Source of the DNA: Gemmatimonadota bacterium
GTDB taxonomy: Bacteria; 4572-55; J002
Direction of reading: 5' to 3'
Assembly (NCBI GenBank): GCA_003697105.1
Contig: RFFQ01000040.1
Location: 1 to 41,989, forward strand
Length of the DNA: 41,989 bases
Numbering within the stretch: the stretch's first letter is position 1; each line of letters opens with the position of its first letter. This document shows, piece by piece, positions 11,495 to 21,612 of this stretch. Made by a program: the position numbers and the translations under genes. The notes below the pieces were generated by a model, which did not search any database, had not been told where the DNA came from, and saw only the letters and a program-made list of their open reading frames with translations.

Positions 11495-12856
11495 ATGGGA
11501 CGTGATGTTGTCAAACCCAAAGGGGCACGCGGTACGCGGGATTTCCTACCCGATCAGATGATCCGGCGTCAAATGGTTATCAATACGATCAAAACGGTTT
11601 TTGAAACATACGGTTATGAGCCGCTGGAAACACCCGCCATCGAAAATTTGGAAGTACTGACCGGAAAATACGGCGATGACGAAAAATTGATCTATAAGAT
11701 CATGCGGCGTGGCTTGGATGCCAATAATTTACCGCCACTCCATGAGATGGCAGATTTAGCTTTACGCTATGACCTAACCGTGCCACTTTGCCGGGTGGTG
11801 GCGATGTACCAACACCAATTACAATTGCCGTTCAAACGTTATCAGATCCAACCCGTTTGGCGAGCAGAACGCCCGCAAAAAGGGCGATACCGTGAATTTT
11901 ACCAATGCGATGCAGATGCGGTGGGCACGGCATCTATGTTGGCTGATGCCGAAACCTTGACCCTAATCCATGATGTGTTTCGGACGCTAGGCTTCAAGCA
12001 ATTCCGTATCCGGCTCAATAACCGTAAAATTTTGACCGGAATTGCAGAATATGCCGGCGTGGACGCTACCAAAGCGATGGATGTCTGCATTGCAATCGAT
12101 AAATTGGATAAAATCGGTATGGATGGTGTGATCGGGGAATTACAAAAACGCGGCATTGCTCCAACTGCCATTAATAAAATCATGCCTATTTTGGAAATTA
12201 ATGGCACTAATGACCAAATTTTAAACGATGTAGCCACCTTGTTGGAAAACACACCTACCGGCAGTCAAGGTGTCGCGGAAACACAGGAGCTTATCAACTA
12301 CCTGCAAGCGTTGGGTATCCCAGAAGCCAACTGCGGTATTGACCTTTACATGGCACGCGGTTTGACCTACTATACGGGTCCAATCTATGAAACCATTGTG
12401 GAGGAGCCAAATATCGGAAGTTTAGCCGGTGGGGGACGGTATGACAAACTGATCGGTATGTTTTTAGGACAGGACATCCCCGCGACCGGAATGGCACTCG
12501 GCATTGAGCGTATTATTGATGTGATGACAGAATTAGAGATGCTACCCCCAGCAAAAACTACGGTACAAGTGATTGTGCTCCCATTTAACGCGGAGGTACA
12601 ATTAGAGGCATTACACCTTATCCAAGAGTTACGAACGGCAGGTCTGAATAGCGAATATTACTATAACTTAAATGATAAAATGGGTAAAAAGTTTAAATAT
12701 GCGGGAAATAAAGGGATTCCGGTAGGGGTTGTGATTGGTCCCGACGAAATTCAGCAGGGAACGGTGGGAATTAAAAATTTACAGACCAAGCAACAAGAGA
12801 CCGTGTCCCGTACCAAAATGATCGCGGTTATCAAAAATATGCTGGATCGCGATTGA
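11495..12856 (+). CDS. hisS: Histidine--tRNA ligase
   Basis: RGTRDF, LRYDLTVP, RAERPQKGRYREFYQCD, RGLTYYTG, GGGRYD and GIERI. AAGGAG RBS. Confidence 0.97.
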   Translation: MGRDVVKPKGARGTRDFLPDQMIRRQMVINTIKTVFETYGYEPLETPAIENLEVLTGKYGDDEKLIYKIMRRGLDANNLPPLHEMADLALRYDLTVPLCRVVAMYQHQLQLPFKRYQIQPVWRAERPQKGRYREFYQCDADAVGTASMLADAETLTLIHDVFRTLGFKQFRIRLNNRKILTGIAEYAGVDATKAMDVCIAIDKLDKIGMDGVIGELQKRGIAPTAINKIMPILEINGTNDQILNDVATLLENTPTGSQGVAETQELINYLQALGIPEANCGIDLYMARGLTYYTGPIYETIVEEPNIGSLAGGGRYDKLIGMFLGQDIPATGMALGIERIIDVMTELEMLPPAKTTVQVIVLPFNAEVQLEALHLIQELRTAGLNSEYYYNLNDKMGKKFKYAGNKGIPVGVVIGPDEIQQGTVGIKNLQTKQQETVSRTKMIAVIKNMLDRD

Positions 12857-12858
12857 CC

Positions 12859-13521
12859 ATGCCTATCTTGATTGGTATTGGAGGGGGTTCTGGTGCGGGA
12901 AAAACCGTTCTCGCCCAAGAGATTCAACGCCAAATTAGCCCATCATACTGTGTGATTCTCCCGTTGGAATCGTATTACCGGAATTGGGACGATCTACCTG
13001 AGTTCAACGGTTGGAAAAATTTCGACCATCCCGATGCCTTTGATCAGGATACATTAATATACCATTTGCGGGCGTTGTCTATGAACGCTACCATTCAACA
13101 ACCCGTTTATGAGAATCACCGGCGTATTGGCTACCGAACCTTTTCGCCAGCCTATCTCACTTGTGTTGTGGGGTTGCATATATTAAATTTGGCGGAGTTT
13201 CGAGCCGTTTTGAATCTGAACATTTATGTAAACACACCGGACCCCATTCGATATAAACGCCGGTTGCAACGGGCACGGCAGGAATGGGGGCTTTCCACTG
13301 AGCAGGCACGCCTCCAATATGAACAGATGGTCTATCCAATGTACAAACAGTGGGTTGAACCCAGCCAAAAGTACGCGGACGTGATCGTCTCCGGTATAAC
13401 ACCGGTGGCGGAAACTGCCCGACACATTCTGAAACGGTTGCAAAAATGTGACGCCAAAATACCACATTTGCAAATAAAACACAACATTGGCGGGAAATCA
13501 TACCCAGAAAATATAAATTAA
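12859..13521 (+). CDS. udk: Uridine kinase-like protein (divergent active site)
   Basis: IGIGGGSGAGKT, NFDHPDAFD and WVEPSQKYADVIV. Several conserved residues are substituted (see findings). Confidence 0.75.
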   Translation: MPILIGIGGGSGAGKTVLAQEIQRQISPSYCVILPLESYYRNWDDLPEFNGWKNFDHPDAFDQDTLIYHLRALSMNATIQQPVYENHRRIGYRTFSPAYLTCVVGLHILNLAEFRAVLNLNIYVNTPDPIRYKRRLQRARQEWGLSTEQARLQYEQMVYPMYKQWVEPSQKYADVIVSGITPVAETARHILKRLQKCDAKIPHLQIKHNIGGKSYPENIN

Positions 13522-13559
13522 CCTACTGAAAAATAAAAACTTAACCAGTATAATTACTG

Positions 13560-13575
13560 TGGTATGAAGGTTGCT
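13560..13575 (+). promoter_or_regulatory. sigma54 (RpoN) -24/-12 promoter, candidate
   Basis: TGGTAT-GAAGG-TTGCT has exact GG-N10-GC spacing. It is preceded by an AT-rich IHF-like segment. Confidence 0.65.
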
Positions 13576-13585
13576 CATGTATAGA

Positions 13586-13749
13586 GTTACCTTTTCTCCT
13601 CCCTAAACTTAAGGTGAAGGCGCGATAGTTGATTCTGGTTTAAGTTACAGGTTTTCCTGCCTCCTTTTCCTGTAAACTTTAACCCCTGTTTTCCGTTTTC
13701 CCCCTACGGAAACACCTCGACACCAGAATTCGACTATCGCGTTTTTTTT
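13586..13749 (+). ncRNA. Candidate structured small RNA with three CU-rich anti-SD-like loops
   Basis: 5' hairpin TTACCTT/AAGGTGA with loop TTCTCCTCCCT. Long closing stem 13620-13639/13722-13742 enclosing two hairpins with loops TTTTCCTGCCTCCTTTT and TTTCCCCCT. Ends in T8. No ORF. Confidence 0.62.
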
Positions 13750-13783
13750 ATTTTATCTCATTATGTTATAAGGAGTTATGATT

Positions 13784-14197
13784 ATGGCATTTCTGAATAA
13801 AATCGATCATATCGGGATCGCGGTGCGAAGCATCGAGAACAGTTTGAAGCTATATGTAGATCAATTGAAGATGCCGTTGGTACACCGGGAGGATGTCCCC
13901 GAACGCGGGGTACGGGTGGCATTTACTCAAATCGGCGAAAGTACCATTGAATTATTGGAGCCAACACAACCGGAATCGACGATTGCAAAGTTCTTGGAAA
14001 AACGGGGGGAAGGTTTTCATCACATCTGTTATGCGGTTGATGATGTCAATGCAACCTTGAAAGCACTCGAAGCGGAAGGCGCCACATTGATCGACAAAGA
14101 AGCGCGTCCCGGTGCCGAGAACAAACTGGTGGCATTTGTTCACCCCAAATCGATGGGCGGAGTACTGGTCGAATTGGCGCAACCCATGCCCAAATAA
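13784..14197 (+). CDS. mce: Methylmalonyl-CoA epimerase (VOC family)
   Basis: KIDHIGIAV, IELLEP, KFLEKRGEGFHHI and FVHPKSMGGVLVEL. AAGGAG spacing favours the ATG at 13784. Confidence 0.92.
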   Translation: MAFLNKIDHIGIAVRSIENSLKLYVDQLKMPLVHREDVPERGVRVAFTQIGESTIELLEPTQPESTIAKFLEKRGEGFHHICYAVDDVNATLKALEAEGATLIDKEARPGAENKLVAFVHPKSMGGVLVELAQPMPK

Positions 14198-14199
14198 GA

Positions 14200-14829
14200 T
14201 TACGCCAACCATTGTGAGGCGACTTTAACCGCTCCGGAACGTAAAATCCGGGGCGGTTTTTTCGTTACATCAATCACGGTAGAAGGCATGGCTGAAGAGG
14301 ATTTTCCGGCATCCAAAATCAAATCAATTTGACCATCAAGTTGGTCAAGAACATCGTGGGCAGTTAGCGGAGGCGTTTCTCCAGAGAGATTGGCACTGGG
14401 CGCAGTCAAAGGGCAATTGCAAGCACGAAGTAATGCTAATGCCACCGGGTGGGGCGGAATGCGAATCCCAATGGAATCGCCCCCACCCCGCAATATCGGG
14501 GAAACCGCCGGTTTTGCCGGAAAAACTAGAGTTAATGCTCCGGGCCAATATTCTGCCATGAGCGGCGTTGCACCGGGAGGGATCTCCGTGACAAATTCAG
14601 CCAGAGCATCTGTACTGGGGAGTAAAATCAGGATTGGCTTATTTGCGGGGCGATTTTTAATCTCAAACACTCGCTGGATGGCACGGTCATTCTGGGCGTC
14701 CGCCGCCAAGCCATAAAGAGTTTCCGTTGGGAAGGCAATCACTCCCCCATCTTGGATAATTGTTGCTGCCTGCGCAATGATATTCGGGTCAGGGTATTGT
14801 GGATGAATGCTTAAAAGAGGCGTGCTCAT
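14200..14829 (-). CDS. tsaC: L-threonylcarbamoyladenylate synthase (TsaC/YrdC)
   Basis: AFPTETLYGL, KNRPANKP, WPGALT, APSANLSG, PSTVID and LRSG. Confidence 0.93.
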   Translation of the reverse strand: MSTPLLSIHPQYPDPNIIAQAATIIQDGGVIAFPTETLYGLAADAQNDRAIQRVFEIKNRPANKPILILLPSTDALAEFVTEIPPGATPLMAEYWPGALTLVFPAKPAVSPILRGGGDSIGIRIPPHPVALALLRACNCPLTAPSANLSGETPPLTAHDVLDQLDGQIDLILDAGKSSSAMPSTVIDVTKKPPRILRSGAVKVASQWLA

Positions 14830-14884
14830 CTCTCGAAATTCTCCGGCGTTGGCATTGACATATTCCGCTTATTAATCAAGCACG

Positions 14885-14913
14885 AACCTAAAATCCCTCA
14901 GGATGAAAGTCAA
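14885..14913 (-). promoter_or_regulatory. sigma70-type promoter for tsaC
   Basis: Minus strand TTGACT-N17-TAGGTT, just downstream of the sRNA terminator. Confidence 0.55.
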
Positions 14914-14923
14914 TAACCAAACT

Positions 14924-14955
14924 AAAAAACCCCCGAAGTTTTCACTTCGGGGGTT
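14924..14955 (-). terminator. Intrinsic terminator ending the candidate minus-strand sRNA
   Basis: Minus strand AACCCCCGAAG-TGAAAA-CTTCGGGGG-TTTTTT. Confidence 0.8.
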
Positions 14956-15067
14956 CATGGTGTCGCTCACCTTGTAGCAACAACAGGGGGCAGGTGACAC
15001 ACTGGTTAAGGGGGGGTCACCGTGTATCAGCTTGAACCGCCCACGCCCACTGTTACTACGATGTGAC
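14924..15067 (-). ncRNA. Candidate rod-shaped small RNA with a C7 apical loop
   Basis: Nested pairings TCAC/GTGA, GTAGTAACA/TGTTGCTAC, GGGCGG/CTGCCC, TGATACAC/GTGTGTCA and GGT/ACC around the loop GACCCCCCCTTA. Followed by a terminator; GC-rich segment in an AT-rich spacer. Confidence 0.6.
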
Positions 15068-15077
15068 CTTTTCCTAA

Positions 15078-15093
15078 AGCGAAGAATATGCCA
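15078..15093 (-). promoter_or_regulatory. sigma54 (RpoN) -24/-12 promoter, candidate
   Basis: Minus strand TGGCAT-ATTCT-TCGCT with GG-N10-GC spacing. IHF-like TAACAATAGGTTA at 15110-15122. Confidence 0.58.
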
Positions 15094-15325
15094 ACTTTGA
15101 TAAATAACATAACCTATTGTTATATAACAGGTTACTACATTTTAATTTATCTAGTAGGACTTAAAAATGGGCATAACTCCCATAAAAATAAGCCCACGGA
15201 AAGTGTCAAATGGGTGACATTTCCCACGACAACTTTATAAACCGCTTTTCAGCGATAATAAAAAAGCGGTAGGGGTAATGGTACCTTTACCACTAATTAT
15301 ATTTAAATGGTAGCGAATTAAAGAG

Positions 15326-15799
15326 TTACACAGTTAAGCGCTCCATCAAATTGACCATTTCCAAAGCGGTAAGTGCCGCATCCCAACCTTTATTACCGAC
15401 TTTTGTACCTGCCCGTTCAATCGCTTGTTCGATGGTATCTGTGGTAATTACCCCATAGGTGACCGGTATGTCGAATTGGAGAGCGGTTGTTGCAATACCT
15501 TTGGTGACTTCTGACGCGATAAAATCAAAATGGGGTGTTGCGCCTCGGATGACCGCTCCCACACAAATAATCGCATCATATTTACCGCTTTTTGCCATCT
15601 GTTTTGCCACCAGCGGGATTTCAAACGAACCGGGAACCCACACCCCAGTAATATCACTTTCCGCAACACCGTGCCGCAAAAGACAATCAATGGCCCCCTC
15701 CATTAATCTTTTGGTGATGAGTTCATTAAATCGCCCCATCACCAGACCAAATTTTTTGCCTTCACCAGAATATTGACCTTCGATTATATGAATTGCCAT
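15326..15799 (-). CDS. ribH: 6,7-dimethyl-8-ribityllumazine synthase
   Basis: [27 protein letters not shown] and [14 protein letters not shown]. Confidence 0.97.
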
Positions 15800-15811
15800 A
15801 AGAAACTCCTC

Positions 15812-16942
15812 CTATTCAAAAGGTACTGAACTTACGATTTCCAAACCATACGCATTTAAACCTACCCGCCGTTGTTGCGGGTGGTTTGTTAAGAGCCGGA
15901 TCGTGGAGAGTCCGAGGTCTGCCAGAATTTGCGCTCCAATGCCGTAATCCCGCATATCCATGTGCAATACGGATTTGAGTTCATACGGCTCGAAAGCATC
16001 AATTTTTTTAGCATAGTCCACCATTTTATTGACCAAATATTGTCCTCGTCCTTCCTGTGGAATGACAAACACCAAGACGGCATACTCTTCTTGCGCTAAT
16101 CGTTCCAGTGCCCGTACTGCTATATTTTGCCCATGTTCGGACATACCATCTAGCATAGCGAGCAGAGGCGACGAAGAGTGTACCCGAACGAGGACATCTT
16201 TTTTGCCCCGGACATCACCTTTCACAAATGCCAAATGATACTCATCTGTTAATGTCGTCCGGTACACATGCAGTGTGAAATCACCAAATCGAGTGGGGAA
16301 AGGTTTATAAAAGACCCGTTCGATCAGTTTATCTTTTTGATAGCGGTACGAGATTAAATCGCGGATGGTAATCATCTTTAATTGATGTTTTTCGGCAAAT
16401 TTTAAGAGCGCCGGAACGCGTGCCATGGTGCCATCATCATCCATAATTTCGCACAACACACCGGCCGGATAATGTCCGACGAGCCGAGCCAAATCAATTG
16501 CGGCTTCCGTATGCCCTGCACGCCGAAGTACACCCCCTTCAGCGGCTTGTAATGGAAAGATATGCCCCGGGCGCGCTAAATCTTCCGGTTTAGTCTGGGG
16601 GTCAACCAATGCTTGGATCGTGATGGCGCGGTCGTGGGCGGAAATGCCCGTGGTCGTACCTTTGATCGCATCCACGGAGACCGTGAAGGCCGTAGAACGT
16701 TGGGCAGTATTATTGGAGACCATCTGTTCCAATTCCAATTCTTTCAGGCGTTCCGCGGTCATCGAGACACAGATCAAGCCCCGGCCATGAGTTGCCATAA
16801 AATTGACTAATTGCGGGGTAATACATTGTGCCGAACAAATCAGGTCGCCCTCATTCTCCCGGTCCTCATCATCCGTGACAATAATTAATTTTCCGTCTCG
16901 AAAGTCCTCAATAGCCTCTTCAATCGTATTGAACCCAAACAT
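15812..16942 (-). CDS. ribB: 3,4-dihydroxy-2-butanone-4-phosphate synthase fused to a degenerate GTP cyclohydrolase II domain (RibBX-like)
   Basis: The DHBP domain is intact ([26 protein letters not shown]). The C-domain keeps RVHS, QEGRG and [10 protein letters not shown] but lacks the Zn-binding cysteines. Confidence 0.9.
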
Positions 16943-20341: not shown

Positions 20342-20554
20342 GTAACCTCCGAATAGTCATGAAAATATAAAGACAACTCTAAATTTTTCAGGAACTTAGG
20401 CTAATAAGTTTATGGGATATTTCAGGTAAGCTGCTGATGATAAACCGGTTAAGACAATTACCACGGGGTTCTATCTTAAATTGGTTAGCATGGTCGGAGT
20501 CTCAAAAGCGAGGTAAAAGTACAAGGTAACCCTAGTACTGTCAACAAAAAAGTG

Positions 20555-20584
20555 TTGACAAAACCGCGTGGGATATGGTATTGT
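20555..20584 (+). promoter_or_regulatory. sigma70-type promoter for HU
   Basis: TTGACA-N18-TATTGT with TG extension. The -35 is one arm of the palindrome TGTCAACA-N6-TGTTGACA. Confidence 0.6.
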
Positions 20585-20635
20585 GCGGTGTCGAATTTAT
20601 CTAATTTTAATAAAAGAGGAGGTGACACAGACATA

Positions 20636-20908
20636 ATGAAGAAACAAGATTTCGTCAGCAAAGTGGCCGAACAAACCGGGTTGACCAAAAAGCAATCCGA
20701 AGCGGCGGTTAACGCTGTACTGGATACCATCAAAGACGCCCTTTCCCAAGGAGAAAAAGTGTCGTTTGTTGGGTTTGGTACGTTCATGGTGGTTGAACGA
20801 AGCGCCCGTAAAGGGAAAAATCCCCGAACCGGTGATACCATCGAAATTCCGGCGAAAAAAGTTCCGGTATTCCGCGCGGGTAAAGCACTTAAGGATTCGG
20901 CGGCGTAA
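20636..20908 (+). CDS. hup: DNA-binding protein HU
   Basis: [16 protein letters not shown] and [12 protein letters not shown]. The GGAGGTGA RBS supports the ATG at 20636. Confidence 0.95.
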
Positions 20909-21004: not shown

Positions 21005-21124
21005 CCCCCCTCTGAAAATCAGATATATCTATTTCGATCCATCTGAAACATCGATTTGAGAGTTGGGACGATAAAAATCAGCATGATTGCCGTTTTTAAT
21101 GATAGGTTTTAAGGAGTGAAATCA

Positions 21125-21403
21125 ATGACAAAAGCCGAACTGGTCGATCAAGTATCCGAAGAAACCGGATTTACCAAAAAAGACAGTGCTGACATTGTAA
21201 ATGCCTTTTTAGATATTGTCATCGATACGTTGAGCAAAGGTCAAGGGATTGAAATTCGGGGTTTTGGTAGCTTCAAAGTCAAAAAACGAGACCAACGCGT
21301 TGCCCGCAATCCCAGAACAGGAGAGTCTGTGATTGTCCCCGCGAAATCAGTACCGGTGTTTAAGCCCTCAAAAGATTTGAAATCCATGGTTAGTCAACTT
21401 TAA
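21125..21403 (+). CDS. Integration host factor/HU family protein (IHF-beta-like)
   Basis: MTKAELV, IEIRGFGSF, ARNPRTGE and VPVFKPSK. AAGGAG RBS. Confidence 0.9.
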   Translation: MTKAELVDQVSEETGFTKKDSADIVNAFLDIVIDTLSKGQGIEIRGFGSFKVKKRDQRVARNPRTGESVIVPAKSVPVFKPSKDLKSMVSQL

Positions 21404-21535: not shown

Positions 21536-21612
21536 GCGCCCGTAGCTCAGTTGGATAGAGCGTCAGATTCCGGATCTGAAGGTCGTGCGTTCGAATCGCG
21601 CCGGGCGTACCA
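21536..21612 (+). tRNA. tRNA-Arg(CCG)
   Basis: Acceptor GCGCCCG/CGGGCGT, D-arm GCTC/GAGC, anticodon arm TCAGA-TTCCGGA-TCTGA, GTTCGAATC T-loop and encoded CCA. Confidence 0.97.

Follow-up and report, generated by a model that had tools for sequence, protein, structure and literature searches.

Two predicted orphan small RNAs with sigma54/IHF-type promoters in a hot-spring Gemmatimonadota genome, and the doubtful case for one activator

Could two unlike small RNAs (sRNAs), encoded about 1.5 kb apart, be outputs of one and the same sigma54 activator? The question is raised by a stretch of 41,989 nucleotides from a Gemmatimonadota bacterium (contig RFFQ01000040.1 of assembly GCA_003697105.1, here contig C105; hereafter the window), in which two predicted sRNA genes, sRNA1 and sRNA2, point towards each other across an mce-like gene and tsaC. 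The source genome (G000) was obtained from a hot-spring metagenome and comprises 4.18 Mb in 199 contigs, with a G+C content of 48.5% and a completeness of 96.9%. An initial annotation of the window had assigned to each sRNA a sigma54-type -24/-12 box, an element resembling a binding site for integration host factor (IHF) and, farther upstream, a shared 15-mer that a single bacterial enhancer-binding protein (bEBP) was proposed to recognise. All the sequence elements that it quoted were recovered at their places. In gene order the region reads hisS, a uridine-kinase-family gene, sRNA1, the mce-like gene, tsaC (-), sRNA2 (-), ribH and ribBA. As described below, both promoters are, to judge by sequence, probably genuine and dependent on sigma54 and IHF, the sRNAs behind them being orphans, and it is the notion of a common activator that fared poorly.

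We considered the -24/-12 boxes by means of a strict consensus. TGGYAY-N5-TYGCW occurs 21 times in the genome, and 6 of these matches, both sRNA boxes among them, lie between genes, where 1.6 are expected (binomial p = 0.004). The enrichment depended on the spacer, since TGGCAY-N5-T[TC]GC was intergenic in 7 of 27 cases, compared to 3 of 116 for control motifs with N4 or N6 spacing (Fisher p = 3e-4). Three strict matches were found in the window against 0.36 expected, a number reached by none of 100 shuffles, and the TCGC seen at -12 of the sRNA2 box recurs at five intergenic sites. Strict consensus, spacing controls and shuffles therefore all placed the annotated boxes beyond chance. Transcription from sigma54 promoters starts about 12 nt past the GC and needs rpoN and ATP hydrolysis by a bEBP. 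The +1 predicted from either box lies about 2 nt or less from where the first helix of the corresponding RNA begins.

Between the 15-mer and the box of each promoter lies an AT-rich element, TAACCTACTGAAA (13519-13531) ahead of sRNA1 and TAACCTATTGTTA (15110-15122) ahead of sRNA2. An IHF matrix was built from 15 sites at other sigma54-like promoters of the genome, leaving out the sRNA1 and sRNA2 sites, and in the sRNA upstream regions it picked exactly these two elements. The sRNA1 site scored 13.7, a value attained by 2.0% of random intergenic 95-nt windows, and the sRNA2 site scored 12.9, attained by 2.7% of random intergenic windows, indicating that the IHF-like elements of the initial annotation are beyond chance. 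The core of the sRNA1 site, TTTCAGTAGGTTA, is the reverse complement of 13519-13531, while that of the sRNA2 site, TAACAATAGGTTA, forms the right half of a palindrome, TAACCT-N13-AGGTTA (15134-15110). Across the genome, 13 of the 30 sigma54-like boxes between genes had a match to the E. coli IHF consensus (at most one mismatch) at an upstream distance of 15-95 nt, compared with 380 of 3000 random windows drawn from intergenic DNA (p = 3e-5). A core particular to this genome, TCARTNGGTTA following a T-rich tract, was intergenic in 14 of 29 occurrences; four of the 14 were recognised on reading as tRNA D-loops, and the remainder (10 of 25) compares with an expected 7.6%. We regard this core behind its T tract as the putative IHF-type consensus of the lineage. 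Examples with the T-rich tract are found at C192:1313, C53:59148, C78:1065, C16:3054 and C190:1208, and are not limited to sigma54 promoters. Since the sigma54/IHF layout is common to many promoters of the genome, it does not single out the sRNA pair. The predicted IHF sites thus support sigma54 dependence, and not co-regulation.

The machinery that such promoters would use is encoded in the genome. The rpoN gene is present and intact, with a PF04552 match of 214 bits on contig C10 in a 496-aa open reading frame (ORF) that contains the AID, CBD and DBD domains. PF00158 gave 24 matches, and 19 proteins carry a full sigma54-interaction domain, which is accompanied by HTH_8 in 17 of them and by a receiver domain in 13. 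Contig C105 has none of the 24 matches, in agreement with the earlier statement that the window holds no bEBP gene. Two bEBPs have no detectable HTH_8, so that activation from solution is possible. The HU/IHF family has four matches in the genome, two of which are adjacent genes of the window, at 20552-20908 (+) and 21116-21403 (+). The second of these scored about 100 bits on IHF models and about 58 on HU models, all under the curated cut-offs. Both genes are candidates for the proteins that would bind the bend sites.

Both RNAs are predicted to be strongly folded. The minimum free energy was -50 kcal/mol for sRNA1 (z = -6.4) and -67.5 kcal/mol for sRNA2 (z = -6.0), and in neither case did any of 200 shuffles fold as well. 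The 3' end of sRNA2 is a stem-loop followed by a U tract, called by the terminator scan, and that of sRNA1 is a 22-bp closing stem followed by U8. The two RNAs are unlike in both sequence and fold. The predicted loops of sRNA1 contain CCUCC, and also, within 110 nt (13592-13701, +), five copies of UUUUCY. This cluster is the densest in the genome (the runner-up has four), five copies were reached by none of 20000 base shuffles, and it hints at a protein-titrating RNA.

Searches for relatives of the RNAs returned little. Neither sRNA1 nor sRNA2 matched an Rfam 15 family at the gathering score, and the only match in the window was a tRNA (21536-21609); in 13300-15400 the best E-value was 0.18, all scores were far under gathering, and only chance-level rows appeared up to an E-value of 10. 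When each RNA was searched against the genome with blastn, blastn-short and nhmmer, the query RNA alone was returned. A 21-nt near-match on C192 to the IHF-like region of sRNA1 was considered as a paralogue and rejected, being another IHF-type site. Neither locus gave a match in DNA searches of 40 other genomes. The phylum is otherwise represented by G001 and G002 only, three species-level genomes in all, and the Mce of these two is 53% identical. A metagenome scan with Mce, from which 80 of 219 loci were kept, gave a top identity of 54%, and no sigma54-like box was found at the four loci that were inspected (L031 and L033 of the 80, and L029 and L030). By these comparisons sRNA1 and sRNA2 are orphans.

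We lean, by a modest measure, towards the explanation that two unrelated, lineage-specific sRNAs (13585-13750, +; 15070-14924, -) would each be expressed from an enhancer-dependent sigma54 promoter of its own. An IHF-type protein would bend the DNA just upstream of the -24 box, and the bend would let an enhancer-binding protein, whether bound upstream or acting from solution, open the complex. The sRNAs would most likely act in trans through exposed C/U-rich loops (CCUCC and the five UUUUCY in sRNA1; C7 in sRNA2), which would base-pair with purine-rich ribosome-binding sites or else titrate an RNA-binding protein. The features on which this explanation draws are collected in the table.

Table. 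Positions of promoter elements, predicted RNAs and neighbouring genes in the window.
Feature	Position	Strand	Description
sRNA1, ~166 nt	13585..13750	+	5' hairpin; 22-bp closing stem enclosing two hairpins; U8
sRNA2, ~147 nt	14924..15070	-	long irregular hairpin with C7-rich apical loop; 13-bp terminator; U6
sigma54-type box, sRNA1, TGGTATGAAGGTTGCT	13560..13575	+	predicted start ~13585-13586, at foot of first helix of sRNA1
sigma54-type box, sRNA2, TGGCATATTCTTCGCT	15078..15093 (reads 15093-15078)	-	TCGC at -12; predicted start ~15067-15069, at foot of long helix
IHF-like site, sRNA1	13513..13539	-	27-nt matrix match; core TTTCAGTAGGTTA, behind T-rich tract; oriented against transcription
IHF-like site, sRNA2	15104..15130	-	core TAACAATAGGTTA (15122-15110), 1 mismatch to WATCAANNNNTTR; oriented with transcription
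15-mer, copy 1, GGGAAATCATACCCA	13492..13506	+	begins 68 nt upstream of TGG of -24 box
15-mer, copy 2, GGGAAATGTCACCCA	15211..15225 (reads 15225-15211)	-	begins 132 nt upstream of TGG of -24 box
TGGG-N7-CCCA dyad, TGGGCATAACTCCCA	15168..15182	.	on minus strand a weak terminator-like hairpin, then U5
Inverted repeat, GGAAATGTCA-N6-TGACACTTTCC	15198..15224	-	holds most of 15-mer copy 2; no counterpart at sRNA1; partly visible in folds
Rival sigma70-like promoter, CTGAAA-17-TATAAT	13526..13554	+	10/12 match; -35 hexamer within IHF-like site
Uridine-kinase-family gene	12853..13521	+	PRK domain at residues 6-181 of 222
mce-like gene	13778..14197	+	glyoxalase fold; begins 28 nt past sRNA1 terminator, same strand
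tsaC/Sua5-family gene	14200..14829	-	~98 nt past sRNA2 terminator, same strand
ribH (lumazine synthase)	15326..15799	-	upstream of sRNA2, same strand

The 15-mer that was proposed as the shared activator site, GGGAAAT-N3-ACCCA, was compared with several backgrounds. Of 1500 random pairs of intergenic pieces, each 150 nt long, 286 (19%) shared a 12-of-15 match in the same orientation; with 180-nt pieces and either orientation allowed, the figure was 466 of 1000 (47%). Within the window, 14 of 100 shuffles yielded at least two motif matches at up to one mismatch. Near-matches in the genome showed no enrichment between genes, being intergenic in 1 of 4, 4 of 48 and 36 of 674 cases at 0, 1 and 2 mismatches, and no other one had a strict box behind it. 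A look-alike on C185 that agrees at 14 of 15 positions was considered as a regulon member and rejected; on reading, sigma70-like hexamers follow it, and it lacks a good -24/-12 box. As an upstream site the motif was absent from the two phylum mates, with no copy in G001 and two in G002, both inside ORFs. The frequency of the motif is thus at background level in the genome, and the motif is not conserved in the relatives. A dyad shared between the two upstream zones was not found with half-sites of 4, 5 or 6 nt; local palindromes are present at each promoter, such as those at 15198-15224 and about 13441-13475, and none is common to both. The dyad at 15168-15182 had been described as related to the 15-mer. 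Its position is right; its spacing is GGG-N7-CCC as against the GGG-N8-CCC of the 15-mer, and it is also terminator-like in a simple scan. The stretch from ribH to the sRNA2 box (15094-15330, -; 230 nt) is itself unusually structured (z = -4.3), with a 9-bp hairpin at 15241-15270 and two more hairpins, and the presumed enhancer zone of sRNA2 may double as the terminator region of ribH.

Could the two promoters nevertheless answer to a single enhancer-binding protein that reads GGGAAAT-N3-ACCCA and co-induces both RNAs, in a Qrr- or GlmY/GlmZ-like circuit of non-homologous members? The exact 12 bases occur only four times in 4.18 Mb, where about 0.5 are expected from base frequencies, and two of these copies are here, in the same orientation relative to transcription; the other two, on C48 and C94, fall within called ORFs and are not followed by a -24/-12 box. 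The promoters are of the same class and their genes close together, and the distance from motif to box, which differs by 64 nt between the two, would differ by nearly six helical turns. Moreover, each promoter has a TAACCT whose first base is exactly 41 nt ahead of the TGG. This coincidence was noticed post hoc and overlaps the IHF-like sites; an identical run of at least six at a matching offset has a frequency of 2.9%, both among other sigma54-like promoters (11 of 378 pairs) and in random intergenic DNA (582 of 20000 pairs), and TAACCT-N35-TGG-N10-GC occurs six times in the genome, three of them at or near intergenic DNA including the sRNA1 and sRNA2 sites. Against these points stand the chance-level similarity of the two copies, the lack of a common dyad and of intergenic enrichment, and the copies within ORFs in G002 with none in G001. 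The motif is single at each promoter and poorly symmetric, only GGG-N8-CCC being palindromic. Copy 2 is part of a palindrome without counterpart at copy 1, and copy 1 lies inside the kinase ORF, whose C-terminal tail, outside the PRK domain, overlaps it together with the start of the IHF-like site. The RNAs share neither sequence nor fold, and a third candidate sigma54-driven sRNA, on C138, has a clear and different double palindrome upstream. Chance-level similarity, unequal distance and the absence of a shared dyad, of enrichment and of conservation all speak against the single bEBP of the initial annotation, and we consider such a circuit improbable. The shared 15-mer, the only element specific to the pair, is most likely a coincidence. 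Given real promoters, a common activator has a somewhat better standing, and is still rather unlikely.

A different objection concerns the promoters themselves. One or both boxes might be silent or due to chance, and the folded stretches might belong to transcripts made from sigma70-type promoters or by read-through, serving as 5' leaders or attenuators for mce and tsaC or else as elaborate terminators that end the kinase and ribH transcripts. A number of observations weigh on this side, and against free sRNAs. Each structure lies between genes of the same strand, downstream of one and directly upstream of the other (mce for sRNA1, tsaC for sRNA2), and both RNAs could be leaders. The mce-like gene, 28 nt past the U8 tract, has no visible promoter and no room for one of its own behind the sRNA1 terminator, and a sigma70-like promoter matching at 10 of 12 positions, with its -35 hexamer inside the IHF-like site, precedes sRNA1. 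A looser sigma54 score (at least 17.5) was intergenic in 77 of 1214 cases in a genome that is 7.6% intergenic, so that no enrichment was apparent; discrimination comes from the strict consensus only, and the loose score is uninformative. One of the six strict intergenic matches (on C158) probably falls within a gene missed by the crude ORF caller, the gene calls being crude longest-ORF calls. The two IHF-like sites are unlike in orientation and 12 nt apart in relative position. Conservation does not help either: single-sequence covariance models of sRNA2 (R1) and sRNA1 (R2) found only themselves in the three phylum genomes, no RNA-sized gap was found next to mce or ribH in G001 and G002, where the genes are packed against their neighbours, and the folds are without covariation support because the RNAs were not found in these two genomes. 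Set against all this, strict boxes are enriched between genes at the right spacing only, and both have IHF-like sites of a quality rare in random intergenic DNA. In sRNA1 the other hairpins lie inside the terminator stem, so that no antiterminator pairing is apparent. The sigma70 scan found no promoter ahead of sRNA2, and one match in the 2.1-kb region where 3.6 are expected from shuffles, and no Rfam riboswitch or leader match rose above chance. A leader or read-through role is possible above all for sRNA1, because of the sigma70-like promoter and the lack of promoter room before mce; for the locus as a whole we hold it to be about as improbable as the single-activator circuit, and two unrelated sRNAs with separate sigma54/IHF promoters are the explanation that we prefer.

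Two further observations were made at the locus. A nine-codon ORF (MYRVTFSPP and a stop; 13577-13606, +) lies behind GAAGG, within the -12 region and the 5' hairpin of sRNA1, and would be relevant only if transcription started at the sigma70-like promoter. Contigs from three DNA runs of one study were also compared with 12800-15900. X1 and X2 proved to be the same strain, and between 13424 and 15295 the sole difference was a G>A change at 14204 in X2; the listed X2 contigs are without about 15134-15271, a gap that carries no weight.

Similar elements were noted elsewhere in the genome. A strict joint scan for a terminator, a C-rich tract and a box recovered sRNA2 alone, and a looser scan gave 27 rows, mostly gene 3' ends. 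The third candidate sigma54-driven sRNA lies at C138:1030-1210 (+), with the box TGGCACAGCGTGTGCT at 1089-1104, an IHF-type site TTTCAATGGGTTA starting about 39 nt upstream of the box and, beyond it, two TTTCA-N3-TGAAA palindromes, an upstream site unlike anything at sRNA1 or sRNA2. The candidate RNA, about 100 nt long and located between convergent genes, is ORF-free and has a terminator and an unpaired CCCUCCUU. C165:28943-29060 (+) has a weaker box, CGGCATTAAATCTGCT, and behind it another ORF-free candidate RNA with CUCCUUCCCCUCC at its start; this one contains two strong hairpins and is antisense to neighbouring genes. A tandem array of GGGAGTTT-like units of about 8 nt lies just past a gene end at C183:~51500-51690. 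Finally, the same element of about 100 nt was found at the ends of two contigs, C88:1-120 and C172:50560-50755, and twice within C172; it includes the palindrome GTAGAGACGTTGCA / TGCAACGTCTCTAC, of which its apparent sigma54 box is a part, and is probably an assembly-breaking repeat.

Should the promoters prove real, a deep, uncultured hot-spring lineage would contribute two, perhaps three, sRNAs that depend on sigma54, and the sigma54 box together with the IHF-type consensus (TCARTNGGTTA behind a T tract) could help to annotate the regulons of the lineage. A bolder picture can be drawn, in which sigma54 would be a main driver of riboregulation in this three-genome candidate phylum. In that picture sRNA1, sRNA2, the C138 RNA and perhaps the C165 RNA would form a set of sigma54/IHF orphan sRNAs, whose exposed pyrimidine loops (CCUCC, UUUUCY, C7) would serve as anti-Shine-Dalgarno mimics or as sponges for a pyrimidine-binding protein, and sRNA1 and sRNA2, bracketing mce and tsaC, would be paired outputs of one activator. 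We regard this as very unlikely. GlmY/Z, Qrr and CrcZ are well-known examples of sigma54-driven sRNAs with IHF sites, and the attractive part of the proposal, one activator for two unlike RNAs, is not carried by the evidence.

How the locus compares with known systems depends on the level at which the comparison is made. The activator site of a sigma54 promoter is usually at least one inverted repeat some 80-150 bp upstream, and an IHF site is common, not obligatory. Enhancer-dependent promoters with an IHF bend, such as NtrC-controlled glnAp2 and NifA-controlled nifH, are treated in PMC2709558. The promoters described here resemble them in having a GG-N10-GC box close to TGGCAC-N5-TTGCW and, between that box and the DNA farther upstream, an IHF-type site, and differ in that no convincing upstream activator dyad is identifiable at either promoter. 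The Qrr genes are paralogues of each other, share one fold and have conserved LuxO sites. Qrr1-5 of Vibrio are reported to be under LuxO and sigma54 (PMC10162802, PMC4878744). Several sigma54-dependent sRNAs driven by one activator were the model of the initial annotation, which had foreseen members with different folds. Unlike the Qrr genes, sRNA1 and sRNA2 differ in fold, and paralogy and a supported common site are lacking. CrcZ, a protein sponge, has a short motif that recurs in its unpaired regions; the motifs are A-rich and bind Hfq/Crc. CrcZ and CrcY of Pseudomonas are described as being under CbrB and sigma54 with IHF (PMC6296734, PMC8871633). With its five UUUUCY in 110 nt, sRNA1 likewise has a repeated short motif, although this one is pyrimidine-rich and there is no sequence similarity or Rfam match. 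GlmY and GlmZ of Yersinia and Salmonella, according to PMC3045617, have sigma54 promoters that are activated by GlrR (QseF) and require IHF; they are a homologous pair with three conserved GlrR sites each, binding to which was shown experimentally. Here, the RNAs are unrelated, the one candidate site is weakly symmetric and at chance level, there is no nearby activator gene, and the sigma70-like and sigma54 starts would not be the same base. The likeness consists of two sRNA genes, each with a predicted sigma54 promoter and an upstream IHF-like site; in addition, the overlapping sigma70 promoter that is present in some species has a parallel in the sigma70-like hexamers (13526-13554) at sRNA1. 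Homologous members and conserved shared sites fail in this comparison, and it is at the level of sigma54 and IHF that GlmY/GlmZ is the nearest precedent for the two promoters.

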